21,450 bases of DNA from a virus (lineage: Duplodnaviria > Heunggongvirae > Uroviricota > Caudoviricetes): IMG/VR virus record IMGVR_UViG_3300029214_000123, one strand, 5' to 3'. The notes beneath the pieces were generated by a model. That model searched no databases and was not told where the DNA came from. It was given only the letters and a program-made list of their open reading frames with translations. The translations under genes were made by a program, and so were the position numbers. Below, piece by piece: positions 9,684 to 21,450 of the stretch. Within the stretch, counting starts at the first letter, position 1. The number at the start of each line of letters is the position of its first letter.

Positions 9684-10964
9684 ATGAAATATCCGACAGG
9701 CGTGGAAAACCATGGAGGGAAATTACGTATCTGGTTTGTTTATAAAGGCGTAAGAGTCAGGGAAAACCTGGGGGTTCCTGACACAGCAAAAAACAGGCGC
9801 GTTGCAGGTGAGCTACGCGCCTCTGTTTGTTACGCAATAAAAACTGGTGTTTTCGACTATGCAAAACAGTTTCCCTCCTCACGCAATCTGGAAAAATTTG
9901 GTGAGACTCGACAAGATTTAACCATAAAAGAACTGGCTGAAAAATTTCTGGCACTGAAAGAAACTGAAGTCGCAAAAACATCACTCAACACATACCGTGC
10001 CGTCATCAAAAATATCCTGAGCATAATCGGTGAAAAAAATCTTGCCTCATCGATTAATAAAGAAAAATTACTGGAGGTTCGTAAAGAGCTACTGACTGGA
10101 TACCAGATCCCCAAAAGTAACTATATTGTTACACAACCAGGGAGATCGGCTGTAACTGTAAATAATTACATGACAAATCTTAACGCCGTGTTCCAGTTTG
10201 GTGTTGATAACGGTTACCTGGCAGATAACCCGTTTAAGGGGATCTCGCCATTAAAGGAATCAAGAACCATTCCGGATCCTCTTTCGCGGGAGGAATTCAT
10301 CCGTCTTATCGATGCGTGCAGAAATCAGCAAGCCAAAAATTTATGGTGTGTTTCTGTTTATACTGGCGTTCGCCCTGGTGAGCTGTGTGCACTTGGATGG
10401 GAGGACATAGATCTGAAAAATGGAACAATGATGATCAGGAGAAATTTAGCAAAAGACCGTTTCACGGTACCAAAAACACAGGCGGGAACCAATCGGGTCA
10501 TTCATCTTATTAAGCCAGCAATCGACGCTCTCCGGAGTCAGATGACATTAACGAGACTGAGCAAAGAGCATATCATTGATGTTCACCTCAGAGAGTATGG
10601 CAGAACAGAAAAACATAAATGCACCTTTGTTTTTCAACCTGAAGTGTCAGCGAGAGTAAAAAATTATGGTGACCATTTTACCGTTGACTCAATAAGGCAG
10701 ATGTGGGACGCAGCGATAAAACGTGCCGGACTCCGCCATCGAAAATCATATCAGTCGAGACATACTTATGCCTGCTGGTCGCTGACAGCTGGTGCTAATC
10801 CGGCATTTATAGCAAACCAGATGGGCCATGCAGATGCGCAAATGGTATTTCAGGTATACGGAAAATGGATGTCTGAAAACAATAATGCACAGGTAGCTTT
10901 GTTAAATACACAGTTAAGCGAGTTTGCCCCAACCATGCCCCATAACGAAGCAATGAAAAATTAA
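9684..10964 (+). CDS. Phage integrase (tyrosine recombinase), apparently intact
   Basis: 426-aa reading from the ATG at 9684 (track ORF 9669) with a C-terminal catalytic region carrying conserved R...HxxR...Y residues (...RHTYACW..., ...VYGKWM); last prophage gene before the chromosomal rspB. Confidence 0.85.
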   Translation: MKYPTGVENHGGKLRIWFVYKGVRVRENLGVPDTAKNRRVAGELRASVCYAIKTGVFDYAKQFPSSRNLEKFGETRQDLTIKELAEKFLALKETEVAKTSLNTYRAVIKNILSIIGEKNLASSINKEKLLEVRKELLTGYQIPKSNYIVTQPGRSAVTVNNYMTNLNAVFQFGVDNGYLADNPFKGISPLKESRTIPDPLSREEFIRLIDACRNQQAKNLWCVSVYTGVRPGELCALGWEDIDLKNGTMMIRRNLAKDRFTVPKTQAGTNRVIHLIKPAIDALRSQMTLTRLSKEHIIDVHLREYGRTEKHKCTFVFQPEVSARVKNYGDHFTVDSIRQMWDAAIKRAGLRHRKSYQSRHTYACWSLTAGANPAFIANQMGHADAQMVFQVYGKWMSENNNAQVALLNTQLSEFAPTMPHNEAMKN

Positions 10965-11151
10965 TTTAATATTTATCAAATAGTTGACACGTATGACTCT
11001 TGAAATCCATAAATTCAAGCGCAGTGCCCAGCCATCCCGATACTGCTGCTTTCACCAAATCCTTAGTGCTTCTTTCGTGTTTTTCTATTGTCATAATGGT
11101 TATCTCTAAAAAAGAGGTAAGATGCGTACTACTTACTCGCCGTTATTGGTA

Positions 11152-12171
11152 TTATTCAGAAAAAGTGAGTAAGACTTTGCAGCAATGTTTTTGATCCTGT
11201 TCAAATAAACTAATGGCATCAGCAACATGCTGGAAATCAAACGTATGGGTAATTAATTTTTCTGGTTTAATTAACCCTTTACTTAACCAGTCGATAACAA
11301 CCGGAAATTTATTTGCATTTAAGCGTGAAGAGAAAATAGAGAGTTCTTTTCCGGTAATTCCTTGCTGAATCACTTCAGACGGTTCACTGGAGAAGCCCAT
11401 CAATACAATACGTGCCGCTGGAGAAGCCAGCGTTACGGCCTCTTTCAGGATAGAAGGATGACAAGCCGCATCGATAATTAATGTCGGCTTGATGCCTTTT
11501 TCAGCGAAAATCTCGCCAAGCGGTGTCTGGCTGTTATTAATCGCCCAGTCTGCCCCGCTCTCTTTCGCTTTTTCCAGTCGTTCATCAATGCGATCGGCAA
11601 CAATCACATTTTTAACGTTATAGACGCCTTTTAATACCTGAACGATCGTCAGGCCGATTGGACCGGCACCATAAACCAGAACGGTATCATTTTCAGTCGG
11701 TTGACCATGACCGGTAACGTTAGCCGCAATGGTAAAAGGTTCGATCATCACCGCATATTGATCGGCCACTGCTTCAGGAATTTTCCACGCATTTTTTGCC
11801 GGAACCACGGCATATTCACTGAAACCACCGTCAGCGTGCACACCTAATACAGCAAGTGTCGTACAAACGTTCGGCTTACCTATAGAGCACGGATAGCAAT
11901 GCCCACAGCTGACCACCGGATCGACAGCAACGCGTTCACCGACTCTGGCGCTTTCCACACCTTCACCCACCGCATCAATGACGCCAAAGAATTCATGACC
12001 AATGACGCGCGGATATTTCGCAAAAGGATTATGCCCACGGTAAATATGGCTATCTGAACCACAAATTCCGGCAAGTTTCACTTTTACTCGTACTTCACCC
12101 GCTGACGGGGTGGGTATTTCACGTTCGATAATCGACAGTTGATTCGGTTTTTCAATTAAAATGCTTTTCAT
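11152..12171 (-). CDS. rspB: Starvation-sensing protein RspB (Zn-dependent alcohol dehydrogenase family)
   Basis: ORF matches RspB as I recall it from MKSILIEKPNQ... (ATG at 12171); GHE/Cys Zn-ligand motifs and GxGxxG NAD fold. Confidence 0.95.
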   Translation of the reverse strand: MKSILIEKPNQLSIIEREIPTPSAGEVRVKVKLAGICGSDSHIYRGHNPFAKYPRVIGHEFFGVIDAVGEGVESARVGERVAVDPVVSCGHCYPCSIGKPNVCTTLAVLGVHADGGFSEYAVVPAKNAWKIPEAVADQYAVMIEPFTIAANVTGHGQPTENDTVLVYGAGPIGLTIVQVLKGVYNVKNVIVADRIDERLEKAKESGADWAINNSQTPLGEIFAEKGIKPTLIIDAACHPSILKEAVTLASPAARIVLMGFSSEPSEVIQQGITGKELSIFSSRLNANKFPVVIDWLSKGLIKPEKLITHTFDFQHVADAISLFEQDQKHCCKVLLTFSE

Positions 12172-12182
12172 TACCTTACTCC

Positions 12183-13397
12183 TTACCAGTTCCACAGCGT
12201 GCCATCTTCCAGACGTGCGACTGGCAGATAAGCAGGTTCATAGGGATATTTCGCCGCCAGCTTTTCATCGAATTCGATGCCAAGACCCGGTTTGTCTCCC
12301 GGATGCATATAGCCGTTATCGAAAGTCCAGTTGTGCGGGAAGACTTCGAGCATTTGTTCGGAATAACCCATGTACTCCTGGACACCGAAATTGGGGACCC
12401 ACAGATCAAAGTGCAGCGCCGCAGCCATGCAGACTGGTGACAAATCGGAAGGACCGTGTGAGCCAGTACGTACCTGATACAGCGAAGCAAAATCGGCAAT
12501 CCGGCGCATACCGGTAATTCCGCCTGCATGGGTCAGCGTGGTGCGGATATAATCGATGAGTTGCTCTTCAATCAGTTGTTTGCAGTCCCAGATGCTGTTG
12601 AAGACTTCACCCACTGCGATGGGTGTGACGGTATGTTGGCGAATGAGACGGAAGCATTCCTGGTTTTCCGCAGGCGTCGGGTCTTCCATCCAGAACATGC
12701 GATAATCTTCAATGCTTTTACCAAAGCGCGCCGCTTCAATAGGCGTTAAGCGATGGTGCATGTCATGCAGCAAATGTTCATTAAAACCAAACTTGTTACG
12801 TACCGCGTCAAACAATTTCGGCATGAAATCGAGGTATTTCTCCGTCGACCACAGCTGCTCTTCCGGCCACTGTCCTTTGGTTGCGGGTTCATAAGCCAGA
12901 CCTTTACCTTTCGACATGCCGTAGGTGGTTTTCATACCAGGGATTCCGCACTGCACGCGGATGGCTTTGAATCCCAGCTCCTGATGACGGGCATAATCAT
13001 CCAGAGCTTCATCAATACTGTGACCGGTGGTATGGCAATAAACCATCACCCCTTCACGAGACGCGCCGCCGAGTAACTGGTAAAGCGGCATGTTGGCAGC
13101 TTTGGCTTTAATATCCCACAGCGCCATATCAACCGCTGAAATGGCCGACATCGTAACCGGACCGCGACGCCAGTAAGCACCTTTATAGAAAAACTGCCAG
13201 ATATCTTCGATACGGTGCGCATCGCGACCAATAAGCTGCGGACAAAGGTGATCCTGCAAATAAGAGGCCACGGAAAGCTCACGTCCATTGAGGGTGGCAT
13301 CCCCAAGGCCCGTAATACCGTCCTCAGTGGTGATTTTTAATGTGACGAAATTACGCCCCGGACAGGTAACAAAAACTTCAGCCTTTACGATCTTCAT
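12183..13397 (-). CDS. rspA: Starvation-sensing protein RspA (mannonate dehydratase / enolase superfamily)
   Basis: ORF matches RspA as I recall it from [17 protein letters not shown]... (ATG at 13397; the track ORF extends further upstream to 13430). Confidence 0.95.
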
Positions 13398-13602
13398 GTT
13401 CGATTCCTTGCATCGCTTGTCGTGATGCATGAAATCTACGCAACTGAGCTACTACCATACAAGTATGAAGATCGAAAAAAGCCGGAGTGATCACAAAAAA
13501 AGGCGTATATTTGCGCTGTGAATGGTTGACAAAAGATGAAATAGAATACCTTTTGTCAGCTGACACTTCCTCTTATCTTATTGATAAAATGGATTTATGT
13601 TC

Positions 13603-13929
13603 CTACGTGCGCCCCCAGCCCGCAACAATGATCAACATGCCGCAAAGCGCAATCAACGCACCCGTCCAGTCATAAAGAGTCAGTTTCACGCCATCCACAA
13701 CGCGCAGCCACATCAACGCCGTGCAGACATAAACGCCACCATAAGCCGCGTAAACACGCCCACTCGCCGCTGGATGCAACGTTAACAACCAGACAAACAG
13801 CGCCAGTGAAATCCCCGCCGGAAGCAACAGCCAGATACTGGCGTTTCGTTTTAACCACAACCAGGGCAGAAAGCATCCAATAATTTCACACAGCGCAGTA
13901 GCAAAAAATAGTAACGTTGTTTTAATCAT
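13603..13929 (-). CDS. ynfA: YnfA, UPF0060 family inner-membrane protein
   Basis: Multi-[31 protein letters not shown]... from the ATG at 13929. Confidence 0.9.
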
Positions 13930-14063
13930 CTTTGTCACTTATTGACATCATGTATAGTTATAGGGCGACATAATATCATCAATATAAACACCCTCCTGGT
14001 ACGTTTTGCGTTCGCAGTGGATGGTGTAGAATCTCCTTTAATCATTCATACAGGGAATGAATT

Positions 14064-14405
14064 ATGAAAATCACTCTCAGCAAACGAATCGGCCTGCTCG
14101 CTTTTCTGCTGCCTTGCGCACTGGCACTGAGCACAACTGTTCATGCCGAAACTAACAAACTGGTGATTGAGTCTGGCGACAGTGCACAAAGCCGCCAGCA
14201 CGCCGCTATGGAAAAAGAGCAATGGAATGACACGCGCAATCTGCGTCAGAAAGTGAATAAACGCACTGAAAAAGAGTGGGATAAAGCCGACGCCGCTTTT
14301 GATAACCGCGATAAATGTGAGCAAAGCGCCAACATCAATGCCTACTGGGAGCCAAATACTTTGCGCTGCCTGGACCGTCGAACTGGCCGCGTTATTACCC
14401 CCTAA
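14064..14405 (+). CDS. ynfB: YnfB, UPF0482 family secreted protein
   Basis: 113-aa ORF with an N-terminal signal peptide ([28 protein letters not shown]). Confidence 0.9.
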
Positions 14406-14439
14406 CCTGTTATTGATTTAAGGAATGTAAGGACACGTT

Positions 14440-15000
14440 ATGCCAAGCGCCCACAGTGTTAAGCTACGCCCGCTGGAGCGTGAAGATTTACGCTATGTAC
14501 ATCAACTCGACAATAACGCCAGTGTGATGCGTTACTGGTTTGAGGAACCCTACGAAGCCTTTGTTGAACTCTCTGATCTGTATGATAAGCATATTCACGA
14601 TCAGAGCGAACGGCGCTTTGTGGTGGAATGTGACGGCGAAAAAGCCGGTCTGGTGGAGCTGGTGGAAATTAACCATGTACATCGCCGGGCAGAATTTCAG
14701 ATAATTATCTCCCCGGAGTATCAGGGGAAAGGTCTGGCAACCCGTGCCGCCAAATTAGCAATGGACTATGGCTTTACCGTTCTCAATCTCTATAAGCTGT
14801 ATCTGATCGTTGATAAAGAGAATGAAAAAGCGATTCACATTTACCGCAAGCTTGGCTTTTCGGTTGAAGGTGAATTGATGCACGAGTTCTTTATTAATGG
14901 TCAATATCGTAATGCCATTCGCATGTGTATATTCCAGCATCAGTATCTGGCAGAGCACAAAACACCGGGTCAGACTCTCCTGAAGCCGACCGCACAATAG
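14440..15000 (+). CDS. speG: Spermidine N1-acetyltransferase SpeG (GNAT family)
   Basis: 186-aa [44 protein letters not shown]... matches SpeG as I recall it. Confidence 0.95.
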
Positions 15001-15002
15001 CA

Positions 15003-15713
15003 TTAATAATAATCGATCGTATTTTTGATGGTGTAAACCCGTTCGACGGCGGGTTTTACTCCTTCATCAACAATGATTAGCTGACAGTCCACCGGATTAG
15101 CGTGACTGTCATATTCACAGCTCTGTTTTACATTACCAACCCGTTGATTATTCAGTAAAGTAACCGCTGTGTAATCTAATTTTTTGATCGGATCCGTTGA
15201 TGGCGTGGCGCTGACAGATAATGTTTTGTCGTTACTTTTCGTGGTTTTACCCAGCGGATAACCCTGATCATCATAGCGATATTCCATCTGCATTTGTTTG
15301 CTGCTGGCTTTAATCACGAAGCCATTATCATCGGTTTCCCAACTCACCCCGGCAGAAGGTAATTCTGCTAGCTGGCATTTTCCCTGTAAACGTACTCTCT
15401 TCTCCAGCGTCTCGGCATCACGGTAATAATTGGCGTCCAGTACCAGAGCGACCACGGTATTATTTTCCAGATCCAGTAATTCGAGTGAATCAAAACAGCC
15501 TTCTTCCGACAAAGTCCCAGAAACACGTTTCGTCACTTCACCTTGCTCATCCATTAATGTCTGAGTGAAATCTTTTACCGGACCACGCAGCGGATCAAAA
15601 TCGAATTCATTAGAGAAACTGGCCATCTCAGGGGTAAATGAAAGTGTTACCTCTGTGCGGTCACATCCTGTGAGGAATATCGCGAGTAAGCATGGTAGTA
15701 ATTTGTATTTCAC
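15003..15713 (-). CDS. ynfC: YnfC, UPF0257 family lipoprotein; GTG start
   Basis: Sequence from (V/M)KYKLLPCLLAIFLTGC (lipobox LTGC) matches YnfC as I recall it; that position is a GTG at 15713-15711, and the track ORF extends upstream to an ATG at 15749. Confidence 0.85.
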   Translation of the reverse strand: MKYKLLPCLLAIFLTGCDRTEVTLSFTPEMASFSNEFDFDPLRGPVKDFTQTLMDEQGEVTKRVSGTLSEEGCFDSLELLDLENNTVVALVLDANYYRDAETLEKRVRLQGKCQLAELPSAGVSWETDDNGFVIKASSKQMQMEYRYDDQGYPLGKTTKSNDKTLSVSATPSTDPIKKLDYTAVTLLNNQRVGNVKQSCEYDSHANPVDCQLIIVDEGVKPAVERVYTIKNTIDYY

Positions 15714-15820
15714 AACAGTCACCAGAGAGTAGAGATGATTCTCAATCATAGTAGCAAATACAGTACTTTACACGTTAAATGCTATGCTTAAAGAAGTTAT
15801 CTTCGCGTAAGGAGCTTATG

Positions 15821-16126
15821 ATGAAACTCTCAACCTGCTGTGCCGCGCTTCTGCTCGCCCTCGCCTCACCCGCGGTACTCGCCGCGCCGGGATCCTGTGA
15901 GCGCATACAGAGCGATATATCACAGCGCATTATCAATAATGGCGTACCCGAAAGCAGCTTCACGTTAAGTATTGTACCCAATGACCAGGTTGATCAGCCT
16001 GATTCCCAGGTCGTCGGGCATTGTGCTAATGATACGCATAAAATTCTCTACACCCGCACCACCAGCGGTAACGTCTCTGCTCCCGCGCAGTCTACCCAGG
16101 ATGGCGCGCCTGCCGAACCGCAGTAA
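15821..16126 (+). CDS. ynfD: YnfD, secreted DUF1161-like protein
   Basis: MKLSTCCAALLLALASPAVLA signal peptide; the ATG at 15821 is 6 nt after an aaggag SD (track ORF starts upstream at 15779). Confidence 0.85.
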   Translation: MKLSTCCAALLLALASPAVLAAPGSCERIQSDISQRIINNGVPESSFTLSIVPNDQVDQPDSQVVGHCANDTHKILYTRTTSGNVSAPAQSTQDGAPAEPQ

Positions 16127-16142
16127 TACATTATCGACTGAA

Positions 16143-16165
16143 CGCCGGATACGACACATCCGGCG
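16143..16165. repeat. REP-like GC-rich hairpin downstream of ynfD
   Basis: cgccggat-acgacac-atccggcg stem-loop resembling enterobacterial REP/PU elements; no T-run follows. Confidence 0.4.
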
Positions 16166-16324
16166 ATTTGAACATACAACATAATCCCACCTTATTACTC
16201 ATACCCTTCTATTGATATGGATTAATAATTCTTAACCCAAAATGGGTAGACTCCCTCTATTGTTAGCGCGCTAAATATTCAATATATAAACATTTATATA
16301 ACGATAAAGAACAGGGAGTGAGTT

Positions 16325-17734
16325 ATGTCCAAAAATGACCGAATGGTGGGCATCAGCCGCAGAACACTCGTTAAATCAACCGCGATAGGTTCTCTGGCGC
16401 TGGCTGCAGGCGGTTTTTCTTTACCGTTCACCCTGCGCAGTGCAGCGGCAGCGGTACAACAGGCCAGCGAAAAAGTGATCTGGGGTGCCTGTTCCGTCAA
16501 CTGTGGTAGCCGCTGTGCACTTCGTCTACATGTTAAAGATAATGAAGTCACCTGGGTGGAAACTGACAACACCGGCAGCGACGAGTATGGCAATCATCAA
16601 GTACGCGCCTGTTTGCGTGGTCGATCCATCCGCCGGCGTATTAATCATCCCGATCGCTTGAATTACCCAATGAAACGCGTGGGTACACGCGGTGAAGGCA
16701 AATTCGAACGGATTAGCTGGGATGAAGCCCTGGATACTATCGCCAGTAGCCTGAAAAAAACCGTCGAACAATATGGCAATGAGGCTGTATATATTCAGTA
16801 CTCTTCGGGGATTGTTGGCGGCAATATGACCCGCTCTTCGCCATCAGCCTCGGCGGTCAAACGCCTGATGAACTGCTACGGCGGTTCACTCAATCAGTAT
16901 GGCTCCTACAGCACCGCGCAAATTTCCTGTGCCATGCCCTACACCTACGGCAGTAATGATGGCAACAGCACCACGGATATTGAAAACAGCAAGCTGGTCG
17001 TGATGTTTGGTAACAACCCGGCAGAAACCCGCATGAGCGGCGGTGGCATCACTTATCTTCTTGAAAAAGCGCGCGAGAAATCGAACGCCAAAATGATTGT
17101 TATCGATCCGCGATATACCGATACGGCTGCCGGTCGTGAAGACGAATGGCTCCCTATTCGCCCGGGCACCGATGCCGCGCTGGTTGCGGGTATTGCCTGG
17201 GTATTGATTAACGAAAATCTCGTTGATCAACCTTTTCTCGATAAATACTGCGTCGGCTATGACGAAAAAACCTTACCCGCAGATGCACCCAAAAATGGTC
17301 ACTATAAAGCCTATATTCTTGGTGAAGGTGACGATAAAACAGCGAAAACGCCGCAGTGGGCTTCGCAAATTACCGGTATCCCGGAGGACCGTATCATCAA
17401 ACTGGCGCGTGAAATTGGCACAGCAAAACCCGCTTATATCTGCCAGGGCTGGGGGCCGCAACGCCAGGCAAACGGCGAACTGACTGCACGCGCTATTGCT
17501 ATGTTACCTATTTTGACGGGCAATGTCGGCATCAGCGGCGGAAATAGTGGCGCGCGTGAATCGACCTATACCATTACCATAGAACGCCTGCCGGTGCTGG
17601 ATAATCCGGTCAAAACGTCAATCTCCTGCTTCAGCTGGACAGATGCTATCGATCATGGTCCGCAAATGACGGCAATCCGCGACGGCGTCCGCGGCAAAGA
17701 TAAACTGGATGTGCCCATTAAGTTCATCTGGAAC
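16325..17734 (+). pseudogene. ynfE: ynfE 5' fragment (Tat-exported DMSO/selenate reductase-family molybdoenzyme catalytic subunit), cut after codon ~470 by foreign DNA
   Basis: Tat signal (SRRTLVKSTAIGSLALAAG), 4Fe-4S Cys motif (CSVNCGSRCALR), YnfE/DmsA-like sequence up to ...DVPIKFIWN. The remaining ORF tail (FKDLKRTLSRPEVLH, stop at 17782) does not continue as YnfE/DmsA, and the full protein should be roughly 800 aa. Confidence 0.85.
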
Positions 17735-17790
17735 TTCAAGGACTTGAAGCGGACCCTTAGTAGGCCTGAGGTCCTGCATTGAGTCAAGGA

Positions 17791-17824
17791 CTTTGTGTCA
17801 GGCTTTGTGTCAGCCTTGTGTCAT
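17791..17824. repeat. Three tandem copies of an ~11-bp repeat (ctttgtgtcag variants) in the foreign-segment terminal region
   Basis: ctttgtgtcagg / ctttgtgtcagc / cttgtgtcat in direct tandem; followed by a tagacgg ... tagacgg direct repeat (17825-17844). Confidence 0.6.
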
Positions 17825-17976
17825 TAGACGGGATGTCTAGACGGCTGGTCAGGACCCCCGGTGGCCTCGGTCTGGACTTGAGGCGGGGCTATGGGGGGAA
17901 GTCTGCTGGCTTAATGTATTAGATGGTCATTCACATTTTTCTGTCAGAAACCATCGGTCCCACTGTGAGTCCAAAC

Positions 17977-18132
17977 CTAAGGACCTAGAAGTCCACCCAC
18001 AGCCTTAGACAGAGTGTCGAACACATCCACACCGAGTCGACCAGAGAGGACCATATAGAGACCCACAGAGAGGAACACGAGTTTATAGACCAGAGTCAGG
18101 AGGGACCTTAGGTCTGCGGAAGTCATAGACAT
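17977..18132 (-). CDS. Small (51 aa) membrane protein, holin-like or phage small membrane protein; missed by the ORF track (<60 aa)
   Basis: Hand translation MSMTSADLRSLLTLVYKLVFLSVGLYMVLSGRLGVDVFDTLSKAVGGLLGP; strong SD GAAGGAGG 5 nt upstream of the ATG at 18132; one predicted TM helix; same strand as the neighbouring phage-like genes. Confidence 0.55.
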   Translation of the reverse strand: MSMTSADLRSLLTLVYKLVFLSVGLYMVLSGRLGVDVFDTLSKAVGGLLGP

Positions 18133-18276
18133 TGGGTCCTCCTTCGCCTGTATACTACCATACCAGTAATAAGGCCCAGACCATTGGTCCAGACCATAGT
18201 TAGTTAATCACAGTGATAGCCCACCACCTGAAGTCCTGCTGATATTCAGTCCAGACTTACCTCTTACCCATTGGTC

Positions 18277-19266
18277 TTACGCTTCGGTCTTGGTGAACTT
18301 CAGGCGTTTGACTACAGGCAGGACGGCAGTAGCTGAGCCAGTGCCCATCTTGACGGTCGTAGCAGCTTCAGCGACAACGAACACTTTACCGAGGATTTCC
18401 AGAGAGTGAGACTGAGAGTCACCATCACGGGACAGGACCACCGTAATGTTTTCGCCATCGTGGCGGAAGCAACCGAAGCTCAGAGCCGTAAAACGCTTAG
18501 CCATCATGAACACGCCACGGTCTTCACCGTTGTAATACGCAATATCAGTCCCCAGCATATCGACGATAGCGTCTTCACCACCGAAGCCCTGCTTAGCAGC
18601 CAGACGGGAGAGAGCCTTGAGGTGTGACTCATGGGCGATGATACCGTAATCAGTAACCTCAGAACCGAAAGAAGATTCGGTGTTGTCATACAGAGCGTCC
18701 ATGATAGTGTCTGCCTTAGCGGTCAGGCTGCCAGTCAGGACCGGAAGCTCTACGGTCTTCAACAGTTTGGAGGACTCCAGAACGTCAACCATGCGAGCGT
18801 TGATGGTACGGACCACATTCTCACAGATGTTCATAGCGTCCTGCTGAAGTGTGCCCTGAGTGAATCCGGTGGATGACTTGGCGTCCCAGAGCTTGGTCTG
18901 CTCAGAGATGAGAATAGCCTGCTCGATTGGTTCGACCACGATTTCTTGTCCAGACGGAACGGTCACGACTTCAGGTCGCTTACCACCACGGACAGGAACG
19001 ACCACAGAGCGATCAGCCAGAGTGTGAGCAATGATTGGAGTAGGCAGGCTATTGCGGGTCGGCAGGACTTCTACAGGGAACGGGATGTTATCTTGAGCGT
19101 CTTTAAGTACACCGTTCAGCATAGCCTTAACAGTCTTAGCTAACTGGAGGGCATAGACCTGAGGGTCGGCGTTAGTCGGAAGGCCCTCATTAACCTGAAG
19201 GTTGTCGTTGTCGGTGATATGAACAGGCTCAATGCCAAACTGGAAAGCGTTTTTAGTCATATTCAT
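18277..19266 (-). CDS. Phage-like abundant structural protein, tentatively a major capsid protein (329 aa)
   Basis: Long ORF with strongly biased high-expression codon usage (CTG, GGT, CGT, GCT, ATC, GAC). Translation initiation region CAAGGAGATTAATTATA-ATG resembles the T7 gene 10 RBS (AAGGAGATATACAT-ATG). 9-bp hairpin immediately upstream. Few Cys, Ala/Val/Thr/Gly-rich. The capsid assignment is inference, not a recognised homolog. Confidence 0.45.
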   Translation of the reverse strand: MNMTKNAFQFGIEPVHITDNDNLQVNEGLPTNADPQVYALQLAKTVKAMLNGVLKDAQDNIPFPVEVLPTRNSLPTPIIAHTLADRSVVVPVRGGKRPEVVTVPSGQEIVVEPIEQAILISEQTKLWDAKSSTGFTQGTLQQDAMNICENVVRTINARMVDVLESSKLLKTVELPVLTGSLTAKADTIMDALYDNTESSFGSEVTDYGIIAHESHLKALSRLAAKQGFGGEDAIVDMLGTDIAYYNGEDRGVFMMAKRFTALSFGCFRHDGENITVVLSRDGDSQSHSLEILGKVFVVAEAATTVKMGTGSATAVLPVVKRLKFTKTEA

Positions 19267-19298
19267 TATAATTAATCTCCTTGAGTCAAATACTTGAA

Positions 19299-19321
19299 GT
19301 CCCTAACAGGCAGTCAGGGAC
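19299..19321 (-). promoter_or_regulatory. Stable RNA hairpin in the leader of the capsid-like gene (candidate RNase III / mRNA-stability element)
   Basis: On the minus strand GUCCCUGAC-UGCCU-GUUAGGGAC: 9-bp stem with one G-U pair; no U-tract after it, so it is unlikely to be an intrinsic terminator. Confidence 0.4.
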
Positions 19322-19349
19322 CGTGTGTTCTCAGATGAGGGACGCTTGC

Positions 19350-19841
19350 TTACAGGCTGTCCATCCAGTTACCGCCTGACTCAATGTCAGCGACGATAGC
19401 GGCACGGGAGCGACCAGCGGAATGGGTAGCACTGCGGAGGTTCTCACCATAGGTCCGGCGTTCAGCTTTGACCTGTTCGCGGCGCTGTAGCTCTTTCTGC
19501 CACTCTGCATCAGTCATGTTCTCTTCACGCATACGCTCAGCCTGAATGCGCTGCTCTTTAGCAATACGCTCAGCTTCGGCTCGCTTGTTCTGCTGGCGGC
19601 GACCATAGGCGGTCATCAGGTCATTACTGAAGAAGTTGCCAATGGTCACGCCAGCTTCAGCCAGAGCTTCCAGTAACTCCATCGCCTCGCGGCTGGTGGA
19701 CGGTAAGCCTGACAGGTAGCCCGGAATCAGGGTCTTAATCGCCAGAGACAGCGGATAGGACTGACCGTCCAGACTCACAGTATTTTCATAGGGATTGATG
19801 TCGGTGACTGATAGTTTCCAGTCGTTGTTGTTGAATAACAT
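19350..19841 (-). CDS. Phage-like protein (163 aa) with a charged coiled-coil C-terminal half, scaffolding-like
   Basis: ORF with SD AGGAGTACTACCTT-ATG; C-terminal half RRQQNKRAEAERIAKEQRIQAERMREENMTDAEWQKELQRREQVKAERR is Arg/Glu/Gln-rich helical; immediately precedes the capsid-like gene. The scaffold role is inference. Confidence 0.4.
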   Translation of the reverse strand: MLFNNNDWKLSVTDINPYENTVSLDGQSYPLSLAIKTLIPGYLSGLPSTSREAMELLEALAEAGVTIGNFFSNDLMTAYGRRQQNKRAEAERIAKEQRIQAERMREENMTDAEWQKELQRREQVKAERRTYGENLRSATHSAGRSRAAIVADIESGGNWMDSL

Positions 19842-20055
19842 AAGGTAGTACTCCTATTGAGAAGGTGAGAACTATCGGTATCGCAGACACAGTTATGCCT
19901 ACGGGTCTCCCCGCATCGGTCATTCTCAAAAGGTTTTAAAATTAGGTATTAAGTAGGTGAGCTGCTAACGGTTAGGCGCTAGCTTGCTAGCTGACGGCAG
20001 TTTCATAGCGACCAGTTGCGCTATCAGCTCGTCTCGGGATTGGTGCTGGCGGGTC

Positions 20056-20157
20056 TCATCTTNNNNNNNNNNGACCAAGCTCTCTGAGGAGGACTTCAGT
20101 CCGGTAGCCACGGTAACGGAGAGTCATGCGACCCTCAGGTGTGCGCGGGTCAATCAT
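20056..20157 (-). CDS. Possible small basic protein (~33 aa) translationally coupled to the upstream 237-aa gene; spans an N-run
   Basis: ATG at 20157-20155 is preceded by GGAGGG (8 nt upstream) lying in the last codons of the upstream gene; translation MIDPRTPEGRMTLRYRGYRTEVLLRELG... The length depends on the true size of the 10-N gap. Confidence 0.2.
   Translation of the reverse strand: MIDPRTPEGRMTLRYRGYRTEVLLRELGXXXXR
20063..20072. other. Run of 10 N inside the foreign segment
   Basis: Literal n characters. Confidence 1.
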
Positions 20158-20158
20158 C

Positions 20159-20872
20159 TTAGAGTCCCTCCAGCTTGCCGGATTGGGCCTGCTTCAGGAG
20201 GTGCTCTTGCTTCTGCTGGTCGGTGCCAGTGAAGGCAATAAGGATGCCTCGCATCTTGTCAACCATCTCAGGCTTACCGAAGACCTCCAGTCCCTTAGCA
20301 TTGAACCGGAAGTTATAACCACCTGCTGAGAACTTCTGGTCTGACGGCTTAATGATACGAAAGCAGTCGGAATACTTCGGATTTACAGACCACTCGTTAC
20401 TGATTGGATTCTTACGAAAGAGACCACGATGCTGAAGAAGTGCGGTCATTAGCTTCTGAGCGGGTAGACCATAGGTTTTGCAGTAGTCGCCCCAAGTCAC
20501 GCCTCGACGGTTAGCGGACTGAATTGATGCTCGCTTCTTCTGGTCTTCCAGTAACTGCTTGTCCTTCTCAATTCGTCGGATGTATTCAAGGACTTTGCGA
20601 CGCACAGCTTTAGACTCACGCATACCGACTAGTAACAATTGGTCTCCGGTCAGCGTGATTGATTCCATCTGACGACCACCGCCTGTAGGTGTAATCAGAA
20701 CGGTCGCAAAAGTTTTGCAATCGTCCAGCTCATCGCGGACACGGGCTAAGAATTGGTCATTACGGACCGGAGCCTCGCCAGCTTCTGAACGAGCAGGATT
20801 GATAACAGTCGTCAGAAACTCATAGGAAGGCATAGAGAATTCATTGTTAAAGATGACTACTTGTTGAGACAT
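20159..20872 (-). CDS. Phage-like protein of unknown function (237 aa); possibly regulatory/antirepressor-like (weak)
   Basis: Long ORF with SD AAAAGGAGTACAACGAT-ATG, the same AGGAGTAC-type initiation region as the 163-aa gene; codon usage like the neighbouring genes. The segment ESITLTGDQLLLVGMRESKAVRRKVLEYI vaguely recalls Rha/antirepressor-type proteins, which I cannot verify. Confidence 0.5.
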   Translation of the reverse strand: MSQQVVIFNNEFSMPSYEFLTTVINPARSEAGEAPVRNDQFLARVRDELDDCKTFATVLITPTGGGRQMESITLTGDQLLLVGMRESKAVRRKVLEYIRRIEKDKQLLEDQKKRASIQSANRRGVTWGDYCKTYGLPAQKLMTALLQHRGLFRKNPISNEWSVNPKYSDCFRIIKPSDQKFSAGGYNFRFNAKGLEVFGKPEMVDKMRGILIAFTGTDQQKQEHLLKQAQSGKLEGL

Positions 20873-21450
20873 ATCGTTGTACTCCTTTTGTTATGTCTCC
20901 TGAAGTCACACCCTGAAAGCCTACTCAAGCCCCCAACGATAGGGAGACTCACAGGCAACAGGAGACATACAGAAAGACTTGAGGATTGATGAGGTCGTGT
21001 GAAGACCAGAGATGACCATAGCGGCTAATAAAAGGAAATTTTCCTCTTTTGAGGACTGCTCAGTTTTGAGCGCGTTAAGTTCTTCGACCATAGAGACGAA
21101 GGTTGCAGGCCGCATGTCAGGACGAGCTGTAAGGACCCCAGATGGTGAGCGGTGATAGACTTAAGCCAATGTAGTGAGTAGACGAGCTACTAACTGAGAT
21201 GACTGAAGAACGCTAACGAGCTGGAGGTCGATACACGAGGTCTGACAGGGGCGGTCTTCCTACCAGTGATAGTTAAGTCTCTACACTGGTCATACATACC
21301 CAACCTCAAGCAACGACCCAATGTATACAGGGTCCCGATGCTTTGAGCTGGAGACTGACGGAGCTATCGTCGACCCCATGGTTGAGGAAGACACATAGAA
21401 GGAATGAGGTCTGACTTAAGTCTGGACTATAGGTCTTATATTAATCTTCA

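Follow-up and report, generated by a model that had tools for sequence, protein, structure and literature searches.

Two genes with matching start regions belong to a small integrase island in ynfE that carries promoter sequences of the T7 phage group

A 21,450-nucleotide stretch of DNA filed as a tailed virus (IMG/VR record IMGVR_UViG_3300029214_000123; "the window" below means this whole stretch) carries near its right end two minus-strand genes, for proteins of 237 and 163 amino acids (aa), which an earlier note made from the sequence alone had singled out for their shared initiation motif. These genes lie in an integrase island of about 6.5 kb inserted in the Escherichia coli gene ynfE, and the island belongs to a family that carries promoters of the kind found in T7-group phages. 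The evidence leans, though not heavily, towards a reading in which the two genes belong to an operon that an infecting T7-like phage transcribes with its own RNA polymerase, within a minimal satellite or a phage-triggered interference island, two functions that are compatible.

The first 17.7 kb of the window are plain E. coli chromosomal sequence, with rspAB, ynfA-D, speG and the 5' part of ynfE, a subunit gene of the dimethyl sulfoxide (DMSO)/selenate-reductase family. This 5' part (16325-17735) is interrupted at the attachment (att) core CATCTGGAACT and runs into 15 island-encoded codons (FKDLKRTLSRPEVLH) followed by a stop, so that the gene is inactivated and not restored by the insertion. 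ynfE is among the genes interrupted by integrative elements that are listed in the paper introducing TIGER (PMC7192596). The island continues past the window end, and its full extent can be read from two close copies: L001, a complete genome whose island is about 95% identical, and L120, a metagenome contig 99.74% identical to window positions 10280-21450. In L001 the identical 11-bp core stands on both sides of the island (20026 and 26676) and the ynfE frame resumes past the right copy; in L120 the cores are 6472 bp apart. All island genes in both lie on one strand, and their order is tyrosine integrase (528 aa), promoter P1, HNH endonuclease (244 aa), promoter P2, a non-coding stretch of about 0.8 kb, the 237-aa gene, an open reading frame (ORF) of 63 aa, the 163-aa gene, a 329-aa gene, small ORFs and the left att site (attL). 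The order proposed in the earlier note (237 aa, a small ORF, 163 aa, 329 aa, a hydrophobic 51-aa ORF with one helix, terminus) is borne out, save that the terminus is the att site of an island inside ynfE and not the end of a phage genome. At least 80% of the query 17700-21450 is present in 7 of 5426 complete E. coli genomes, most others matching the ynfE part only. As a satellite should be, the element is integrated, has an integrase and att sites of its own, and is polymorphic among strains. Assembly graphs that branch at both att sites suggest that occupied and empty sites coexist.

The same architecture recurs in E. coli, Shigella, Enterobacter, Citrobacter, Buttiauxella, Leclercia, Serratia and others, at four or more integration sites: ynfE, the 3' end of a tRNA gene (with a 17-bp repeat), a position downstream of lysS, and one more. 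Its constant parts are the integrase, the 163-aa gene and a 328/329-aa gene, while two slots vary. Slot 1 adjoins the integrase and holds the HNH gene, PD-T7-4 (a validated defence gene against T7) or a weakly HEPN-like protein. PD-T7-4 is recognised in slot 1 of relatives by PADLOC (E=1.6e-94); in L002 (5240-5902) it has the HEPN and zinc-finger (DUF4145) parts and overlaps the integrase stop. ORFs of 218-219 aa, the size of PD-T7-4, likewise overlap the integrase stop in L105 (4396-5055), L106 (4353-5009) and L107 (4272-4931). PD-T7-4 has been described as a system that "often overlaps an integrase gene" (PMC9519451; Vassallo et al. 2022), a remark for which these islands supply a mobile-element context. 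Slot 2 holds the 237-aa protein here and Rha+KilAC or KilA-N-like proteins in relatives; every slot-2 protein starts with MS (mostly MSQQ), behind a conserved leader.

The earlier note had suggested a rearranged or novel phage type, in effect a T7-like phage or prophage whose capsid and scaffold genes come in an order not seen before. T7-group promoters, T7-style strong Shine-Dalgarno sites and intergenic hairpins give the module a phage-like look, and a small coiled-coil gene directly before a gene of about 330 codons mimics the scaffold-then-capsid order. There are also weak matches of the 329-aa family to PHROG 122 "head decoration" (8 of 11 members, best E=0.044) and one to Phage_cap_P2 (E=0.049). 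However, the roughly 6.5 kb between the att cores hold an integrase, an HNH gene, an Ant-like gene, three small ORFs and two orphan genes, with no RNA polymerase, DNA polymerase, portal, terminase, tail or phage replication genes, and the gene set that marks an Autographiviridae genome (its own RNA polymerase, DNA polymerase, portal, gp10 and gp19) is not found in the whole island. Nor is it a decaying remnant, since the compact architecture is kept from Serratia to E. coli. The suspicion that the order is unlike that of any known phage did hold: megablast of the island part against 50,697 phage records gave no match, and tblastn gave none for the 163-aa and 329-aa proteins. A phage or prophage module is therefore largely refuted as an explanation and is now barely credible.

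A connection with T7 does exist, in the form of the promoters, a homologue of gp7.3 in relatives, and a Kayfunavirus-like HNH endonuclease. P1 reads CCACACTAAACTATCACTGTAGGGACTTC in L120, and the same site is present in L001; it is identical at 25 of 26 positions to one promoter of Kayfunavirus F, a phage with 10 promoters of this type, and at 18 of 18 to another. The core CTATCACTRTAGGGA occurs in several copies per genome in contigs of about 40 kb that are themselves Kayfunavirus. A count across 69 island loci, 626 kb including their flanks, finds the promoter core 114 times on the gene strand against 5 times on the other, with 9 of the 114 inside the 329-aa coding sequence. Several polymerase specificities are represented: a K1F-like type (CTAAACTATCACTATAGGG), a T3-like type (TTATACCCTCACTATAGGG or ATAACCCCTCACTATAGGGG), and further CTTGATTATCACTATAGGGG, AATGAAACCCACACTATAGGGG and AATAAGCACTCACTATAGGGG. 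Often two types stand together as a tandem pair, and the pairs keep to two positions, one just past slot 1 and the other 330-450 nt upstream of slot 2. Among phage sequences, an island promoter region is best matched (35 nt, 94%) by the rightmost promoter, in the phiOR position, of many Kayfunavirus and related genomes. The 23-nt promoters co-oriented with genes that characterise the T7 group are thus present in the island, the window itself having mutated copies only. That mutated pair reads CAGTGTAGAG and CACTGGTAGG and still aligns significantly to the rightmost promoter of Kayfunavirus F, with a local score of 39, against 22 +/- 2.3 for shuffles; intact pairs stand at the homologous place in L105, L109 and others.

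The neighbouring genes point to the same phages. The island HNH endonuclease is 47-50% identical to those of Kayfunavirus (E down to 4e-46). In the phage Ro45lw the HNH gene has terminase gene 19 on one side and phiOR on the other, close to the right end of the genome, and the island repeats this order of HNH gene and then promoter. In relatives a homologue of gp7.3, a T7-group virion protein annotated as "host range and adsorption protein", comes directly after the 329-aa gene as an ORF of 79-80 aa, intact in L001 (20507-20746, minus strand) and L111 (5844-6086); the 79-aa ORF of L001 matches PHROG 1320 (E=1.8e-11) and is 40% identical to gp7.3 of Kayfunavirus F (E=1e-14).

Could the promoter look-alikes be inert relics of recombination with T7-like phages, the genes being expressed from host promoters that went unrecognised? 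The mutated state of the window's own copies would fit this, and the scan for sigma-70-like sites, a crude test by consensus, found 0 in the island part of the window, where 2.6 were expected, and 0 in the whole island, where 5.4 +/- 2.7 were. However, the sites are intergenic and strongly biased to one strand, and divergent islands hold several polymerase specificities as tandem pairs at the same two positions. Since types and positions are maintained in this way, selection on the sites can be argued, and relics have little chance of being the right explanation.

The favoured reading, transcription by the polymerase of an infecting phage, can be put as a sequence of steps. With bacterial sigma-70-type promoter matches depleted in the island (0 found) and co-oriented T7-group promoters in their place, the module would be largely silent in an uninfected cell. 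Upon infection by a T7-like phage, the phage RNA polymerase would transcribe it from the T7-group promoters, which in this lineage are of the Kayfunavirus/K1F type, and in this island copy transcription would come chiefly as read-through from P1 and P2, just past the window. The 237-aa and 163-aa genes are cistrons 1 and 3 of a co-directional module that goes on through the 63-aa ORF (between them), the 329-aa gene, a gp7.3 remnant and the 51-aa membrane ORF. Strong Shine-Dalgarno sites at the foot of conserved leader hairpins may provide for high translation. The 237-aa Ant-like protein would be an exchangeable regulator, and the 163-aa protein (a putative SF216-like coiled-coil oligomer) together with the 329-aa protein would be the conserved payload, most probably acting on virion assembly or DNA packaging of the helper. 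Its action would then either mobilise the island, as in a minimal satellite, or block the phage.

Several observations weigh against this reading. The promoter-like sites inside the window are mutated at -3..+1, and the intact P1 and P2 lie past its end, seen only in the 99.7%-identical contig and the relative at about 95%; expression of this copy would therefore rest on read-through. Genes for replication or a terminase are absent from the island, no similarity to phage proteins could be detected for the 163-aa or the 329-aa protein, and the predicted structure of the latter is too poor for use. No excised circle, concatemer or virion-derived copy of the island was found, the island-length contigs being integrated copies with short flanks and without circular overlap. 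The IMG/VR matches have identifiers of the kind given to isolate genomes and are probably prophage regions called within bacterial genomes. The signs of induction, packaging and transfer by a helper are indirect: the helper-type promoters, the gp7.3 homologue and the HNH/phiOR-like module. As a side observation, such island-only metagenome contigs, 6.2-6.9 kb long with at most about 110 nt of chromosomal flank, are numerous (L111, L122, L130, L131, L133, L134, L136, L139, L140, L151, L155, L157 and L170 among them).

The lack of packaging and replication genes and of a packaged form would suit a pure defence island. Its 163-aa and 329-aa proteins would act as an effector pair, by abortive infection or by poisoning assembly, once switched on by the phage RNA polymerase as an infection sensor, and the element would spread by other means and never be packaged. 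Slot 1 holds validated or candidate defence genes (PD-T7-4, HEPN-like, HNH), and phage-polymerase promoters would serve well as an infection trigger. However, PADLOC matches are confined to this slot-1 cargo, PD-T7-4 in relatives and a homing-endonuclease model for HNH, and no model matches the 163-aa, 237-aa or 329-aa protein. Genes retained in every member of a mobile-element family usually aid its own propagation, and the gp7.3 homologue and phiOR-type promoter fit virion hijacking better. Pure defence is thus rather unlikely, although the two ideas do not exclude each other, as satellites interfere with their helpers.

A bolder form of the satellite idea is tentative, and we would sooner expect it to fail than to hold in full. 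The islands would be the first satellite family of T7-like (Autographiviridae) virulent phages: a roughly 6.5-kb element with promoters tuned to several helper specificities, a phiOR-type packaging region and anti-T7 cargo, whose scaffold-like 163-aa trimer and capsid-like or assembly-factor 329-aa protein might redirect virion assembly, yielding small capsids or packaged six-copy concatemers of about 39 kb. Six islands of 6.47 kb amount to about 38.8 kb, against a Kayfunavirus genome of 39-40.7 kb, a correspondence that is arithmetic alone and no evidence. Chung and Hinkle are said to have found in 1990 that packaging of plasmids by T7 needed a concatemer junction with phiOR.

The 163-aa protein is 58-95% identical across E. 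coli, Enterobacter, Citrobacter, Salmonella, Serratia, Yersinia, Kluyvera and Photorhabdus, and its relatives occur in such islands only; among 1.8 billion representative proteins there were 23 matches, including proteins of 134-165 aa with a like build. Judged by dN/dS against relatives (0.06-0.43 for the 163-aa gene and 0.13-0.20 for the 329-aa gene), both core genes are under purifying selection. The description of the 163-aa protein as half globular and half charged helix stands: 15% of residues 1-72 are charged against 44% of residues 73-135, and an AlphaFold2 model (pLDDT 72) shows three strands and short helices followed by long helices at 73-107 and 111-153. The profile of the family matches SF216 of Shigella flexneri (PDB 5EUR) over residues 19-123 (E=7.3e-5, about 21% identity), and Foldseek pairs the model with 5EUR at probability 1.0 and E of about 1e-2, with modest TM scores of 0.38 (normalised by query) and 0.53 (by target). 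Pfam DUF6971 matches one family member below its cut-off (E=2.8e-4) and does not match the window protein. The 163-aa protein is probably a distant member of the DUF6971/SF216 family, its model showing the strand-strand-strand-helix build of SF216 followed by a charged helix; it differs from SF216 in the greater length of its C-terminal helix and in a conserved tail, NWMDSL. SF216 was reportedly described in 2017 as a trimer with weak RNase activity. The helical charged half, the conserved C-terminal motif and the place directly upstream of the 329-aa gene recall a scaffold protein. Searches on the phage side gave nothing: tblastn of the 163-aa and 329-aa proteins and of SF216 against phages, Foldseek of the 163-aa model against viral structures, and hhalign of the 163-aa family against Kayfunavirus gp9. 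Profiles of the 163-aa and 329-aa families scored at most about 2 bits against all late proteins of Kayfunavirus F, and a Pfam match of the 163-aa protein to T7_gp14 (E=0.011) was set aside as compositional.

The 329-aa protein, called capsid-like in the earlier note, has no Pfam, PHROG, PDB or phage homologue and no relative detected outside the island family; hhalign of its family against Kayfunavirus gp10 also gave nothing. The idea of a capsid-like protein draws on the weak head-related matches and on its very strong ribosome-binding site.

The 237-aa protein, for which no family had been named with confidence, does have one. It matches PHROG 10324 "anti-repressor Ant" over residues 66-227 (E=1.8e-31), while PHROGs 8235, 1726 and 63, all "anti-repressor", span its N-terminal and middle residues, so that profile matches cover both domains of the Ant family. 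Over roughly its first 100 residues, identity to proteins annotated as Ant/KilA antirepressors in Stx, P1-like, Pseudomonas and Vibrio phages is 35-47%, the best tblastn match to annotated antirepressors having E=8e-14; the Pfam ANT/KilAC match (E=0.016) falls under the gathering cut-off. By these sequence matches it is an Ant/KilAC-type antirepressor-like protein, and the slot that it occupies is a swappable one. Among phage antirepressors of this type (P22 Ant, P1 Ant1, those of Stx phages), the N-terminal part resembles annotated Ant/KilA proteins, and the C-terminal part matches PHROG 10324 and, weakly, Pfam ANT. Ant/KilAC antirepressors sit in the immunity regions of temperate phages, whereas the 237-aa gene sits in an island driven by T7-type promoters, inside which no partner repressor gene was found.

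Both genes start downstream of AGGAGTAC(A/T)AC, with the start regions CAATAGGAGTACTACCTTATG (163 aa) and CAAAAGGAGTACAACGATATG (237 aa), and a 22-nt repeat pair with 82% identity spans the two starts. Both ORFs are genuine genes, given the dN/dS of the 163-aa gene and its conservation across genera. The pattern AGGAGTACWAC, chosen after inspection of the data, has exactly two copies in the window, both at these starts, against 0.01 expected from shuffles. The two co-oriented genes and their motif are thus as first described; the inference of common translational control is another matter. It would make AGGAGTAC(A/T)AC a specific cis-element, bound by one protein or RNA that co-regulates translation of both genes. 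Besides the two exact copies, the position of both Shine-Dalgarno sites would fit: each lies at the 3' base of a conserved long-range stem, by prediction, and is partly paired within it. However, relatives carry AGGAGAATTACCT, AGGAGTAATTACT or AGGAGTATTAACA before the 163-aa gene, while the slot-2 gene retains AAAAGGAGTACA; in the other islands examined the bases past AGGAG(T/A)A are not alike between the two genes, and all that the family has in common at both starts is a strong Shine-Dalgarno site, with TA in most islands. The two leaders are otherwise dissimilar in sequence and predicted fold. In an alignment of 10 islands the slot-2 leader forms 33 pairs, with 99% of cells paired and 2 compensatory pairs, a score reached by 2 of 500 shuffles, and contains an inverted repeat (20885-20902 / 20959-20976), whereas the closing stem predicted beside the Shine-Dalgarno site of the 163-aa leader shows no covariation. 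The identity at AGGAGTAC(A/T)AC is a local one and no feature of the family, as the TAC-AC past the Shine-Dalgarno site is unconserved in relatives, and a shared cis-element is very unlikely.

Placed among known systems, the island family looks like an apparently undescribed parasite of, or defence against, T7-like phages. Literature searches on DUF6971 and on satellites of T7-like phages, Autographiviridae or Kayfunavirus brought up nothing pertinent and no description of such an island. Of the two proteins, the 237-aa one belongs to a known, Ant-like family, and the 163-aa one is probably a distant member of the uncharacterised SF216/DUF6971 family. The closest known kinds are PICMI and the PICI and P4-like satellites. 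PICMI (phage-inducible chromosomal minimalist islands) of Vibrionaceae are very small integrase islands of reduced gene content, linked to virulent helper phages, and package their DNA as a concatemer (PMC10803314). The two resemble each other as tiny integrase islands in which genes for capsid remodelling or replication cannot be recognised. They show no sequence relationship, however; the ynfE-type islands differ in carrying T7-group promoters, an Ant/Rha/KilA-N slot and two orphan core genes, and their putative helpers are enterobacterial Autographiviridae. With the PICI, cf-PICI and P4-like satellites of Enterobacterales they share a terminal integrase, a hotspot for defence cargo and, putatively, helper-tied expression and helper interference. 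Those satellites are 10-15 kb long, carry AlpA/repressor, primase-replicase and packaging (terS/Ppi/Sid/Psu) or capsid modules, and parasitise temperate phages, without being wired to a phage RNA polymerase. Pfam, PHROGs and NCBIfam find no AlpA/repressor, primase-replicase, packaging or capsid module in any island protein. The late units of T7-group phages (Studiervirinae, Kayfunavirus) offer near-identical promoters (CTAAACTATCACT(A/G)TAGGGA), strong Shine-Dalgarno sites and intergenic hairpins, and in relatives of the island also gp7.3 and an HNH gene beside a phiOR-type promoter. Unlike a T7-group phage, the island has no polymerase gene of its own, and its core proteins are unrelated in sequence to gp9, gp10, gp14 and other late proteins.

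T7-like phages are textbook cases of self-sufficient virulent phages, widely used in phage therapy and biotechnology, and we know of no satellite or hitch-hiking element that exploits them. If the favoured reading is right, islands whose transcription is tied to RNA polymerases encoded by phages would represent a new means by which a mobile element detects and exploits infection, and the overlap of PD-T7-4 with integrase genes would be explained. For the orphan structure SF216/DUF6971 there would be a genomic setting and a role that can be tested, and the two core proteins (163 aa and 329 aa) would become candidates for new assembly-hijacking or anti-phage mechanisms. It would also bear on host range of, and resistance to, therapeutic Kayfunavirus and other T7-like phages in E. 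coli, Shigella, Enterobacter, Citrobacter and Salmonella.

The positions of these and the smaller features are collected in Table 1.

Table 1. Island features located in the window (window positions; strand where assigned)
Feature	Position	Strand	Remarks
att core CATCTGGAACT	17725-17735		11 bp; left junction in ynfE; island runs from about 17736 past the window end
Three direct repeats TGACACAA(A/G)G	17792-17823	-	adjoin attL; read from sequence
51-aa ORF, one hydrophobic helix ("membrane protein" of the earlier note)	17977-18132	-	Shine-Dalgarno AAGGAGGACCCAATG
G+C-rich hairpin with T-rich tail, terminator-like	18173-18195	-	position kept downstream of 329-aa/gp7.3 genes
gp7.3-like virion protein gene, frame-broken deletion remnant	18208-18271	-	ATGGGTAAGAG joined to 3' end remains
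329-aa conserved core gene ("capsid-like" of the earlier note)	18277-19266	-	very strong Shine-Dalgarno AAGGAGATTAATTATAATG
Hairpin GTCCCTGAC-N-GTTAGGGAC between 163-aa and 329-aa genes	19299-19323	-	in all aligned islands, with stem-keeping changes
163-aa conserved core gene	19350-19841	-	SF216/DUF6971-like (probable); C-terminal NWMDSL conserved
163-aa gene 5' leader, conserved	19842-19945	-	Shine-Dalgarno motif AGGAGTACTAC at 19845-19855
24-nt motif GTTAGCAGCTCACCTACTTAATAC, copy 1	19946-19969	-	upstream of 163-aa gene
63-aa conserved ORF MIDPRTPEGRMTLRYRGY...	19965-20157	-	start coupled to 237-aa stop (TAAGATG)
237-aa Ant/KilAC-type antirepressor-like gene	20159-20872	-	PHROG 10324; variable slot 2
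Slot-2 leader, about 110 nt, long irregular hairpin	20873-20985	-	3' base pairs with part of Shine-Dalgarno motif AGGAGTACAAC (20876-20886)
Small hairpin with T-rich tail, terminator-like	21042-21055	-	
24-nt motif GTTAGTAGCTCGTCTACTCACTAC, copy 2	21171-21194	-	upstream of 237-aa leader
Degenerate tandem promoter look-alikes GACCAGTGTAGAGAC and GACTTAACTATCACTGGTAGGAAGACC	21250-21302	-	second resembles Kayfunavirus rightmost (phiOR-position) promoter, altered at -3..+1

The direct repeats next to attL are probably arm-type binding sites of the integrase, to judge from their sequence and place; the repeat TGACACAAGGCTGACACAAA is also found near both ends of other family members. The window has masked runs of N at 20063-20072 and around 1482. 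The first breaks the frame of the 63-aa ORF artificially, its 10 N standing for 9 bases (TAGACCCGG in L120), which is why this ORF appears shorter in the window. Neither it nor the 51-aa ORF, which is kept in L001, L109 and L111, matches any family. A 64-aa ORF in the leader of the 237-aa gene (20921-21115, minus strand) has no Shine-Dalgarno site, lies in a segment present in some islands only and holds the hairpin at 21042-21055; it is probably non-coding. Rfam, run over the whole island, gave two chance microRNA matches and nothing else.

The 24-nt motif, with consensus GTTAG(C/T)AGCTC(A/G)(C/T)CTACT(T/C)A(A/C)TAC, has 2 copies in the window against 0.00 expected, and the copy upstream of the 163-aa gene is conserved in most islands. 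It includes the palindrome AG(T/C)AG-N5-CTACT and resembles an operator more than a promoter. That this motif (GTTAGTAGCTC..CTACT) might be a phage promoter of another type was also considered and rejected, as it is found in islands only and is absent from phage contigs.

Some observations touch on possible signals in the non-coding DNA. Between two sets of phage promoters in L105 (5088-5658), L003 (5856-6456) and L002 (6489-6955) lies a well-conserved segment of about 570 nt with no long ORF, which is replaced in the lineage of the window and L001; it could be a non-coding RNA transcribed by phage polymerase, an origin or a packaging signal. A comparison of island non-coding DNA with the terminal repeats and pac region of Kayfunavirus returned the promoters and the short words CCTCAAGTC(T)TT and GAGTCTC(C)CT, matches that are suggestive, though not significant. 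CCTCAAGTC has two copies in the window (17875-17883 and 20976-20984, both on the island gene strand; 0.15 expected) and is also found at L101 7534 and in Kayfunavirus terminal repeats (Ro45lw; L181 3605-3794). The slot-2 leader carries GAGTCTCCCT, akin to the phage right end ...GAGTCTCT, and it is possible, from the likeness of these words, that CCTCAAGTC and GAGTCTCCCT mimic phage end or packaging sequences.

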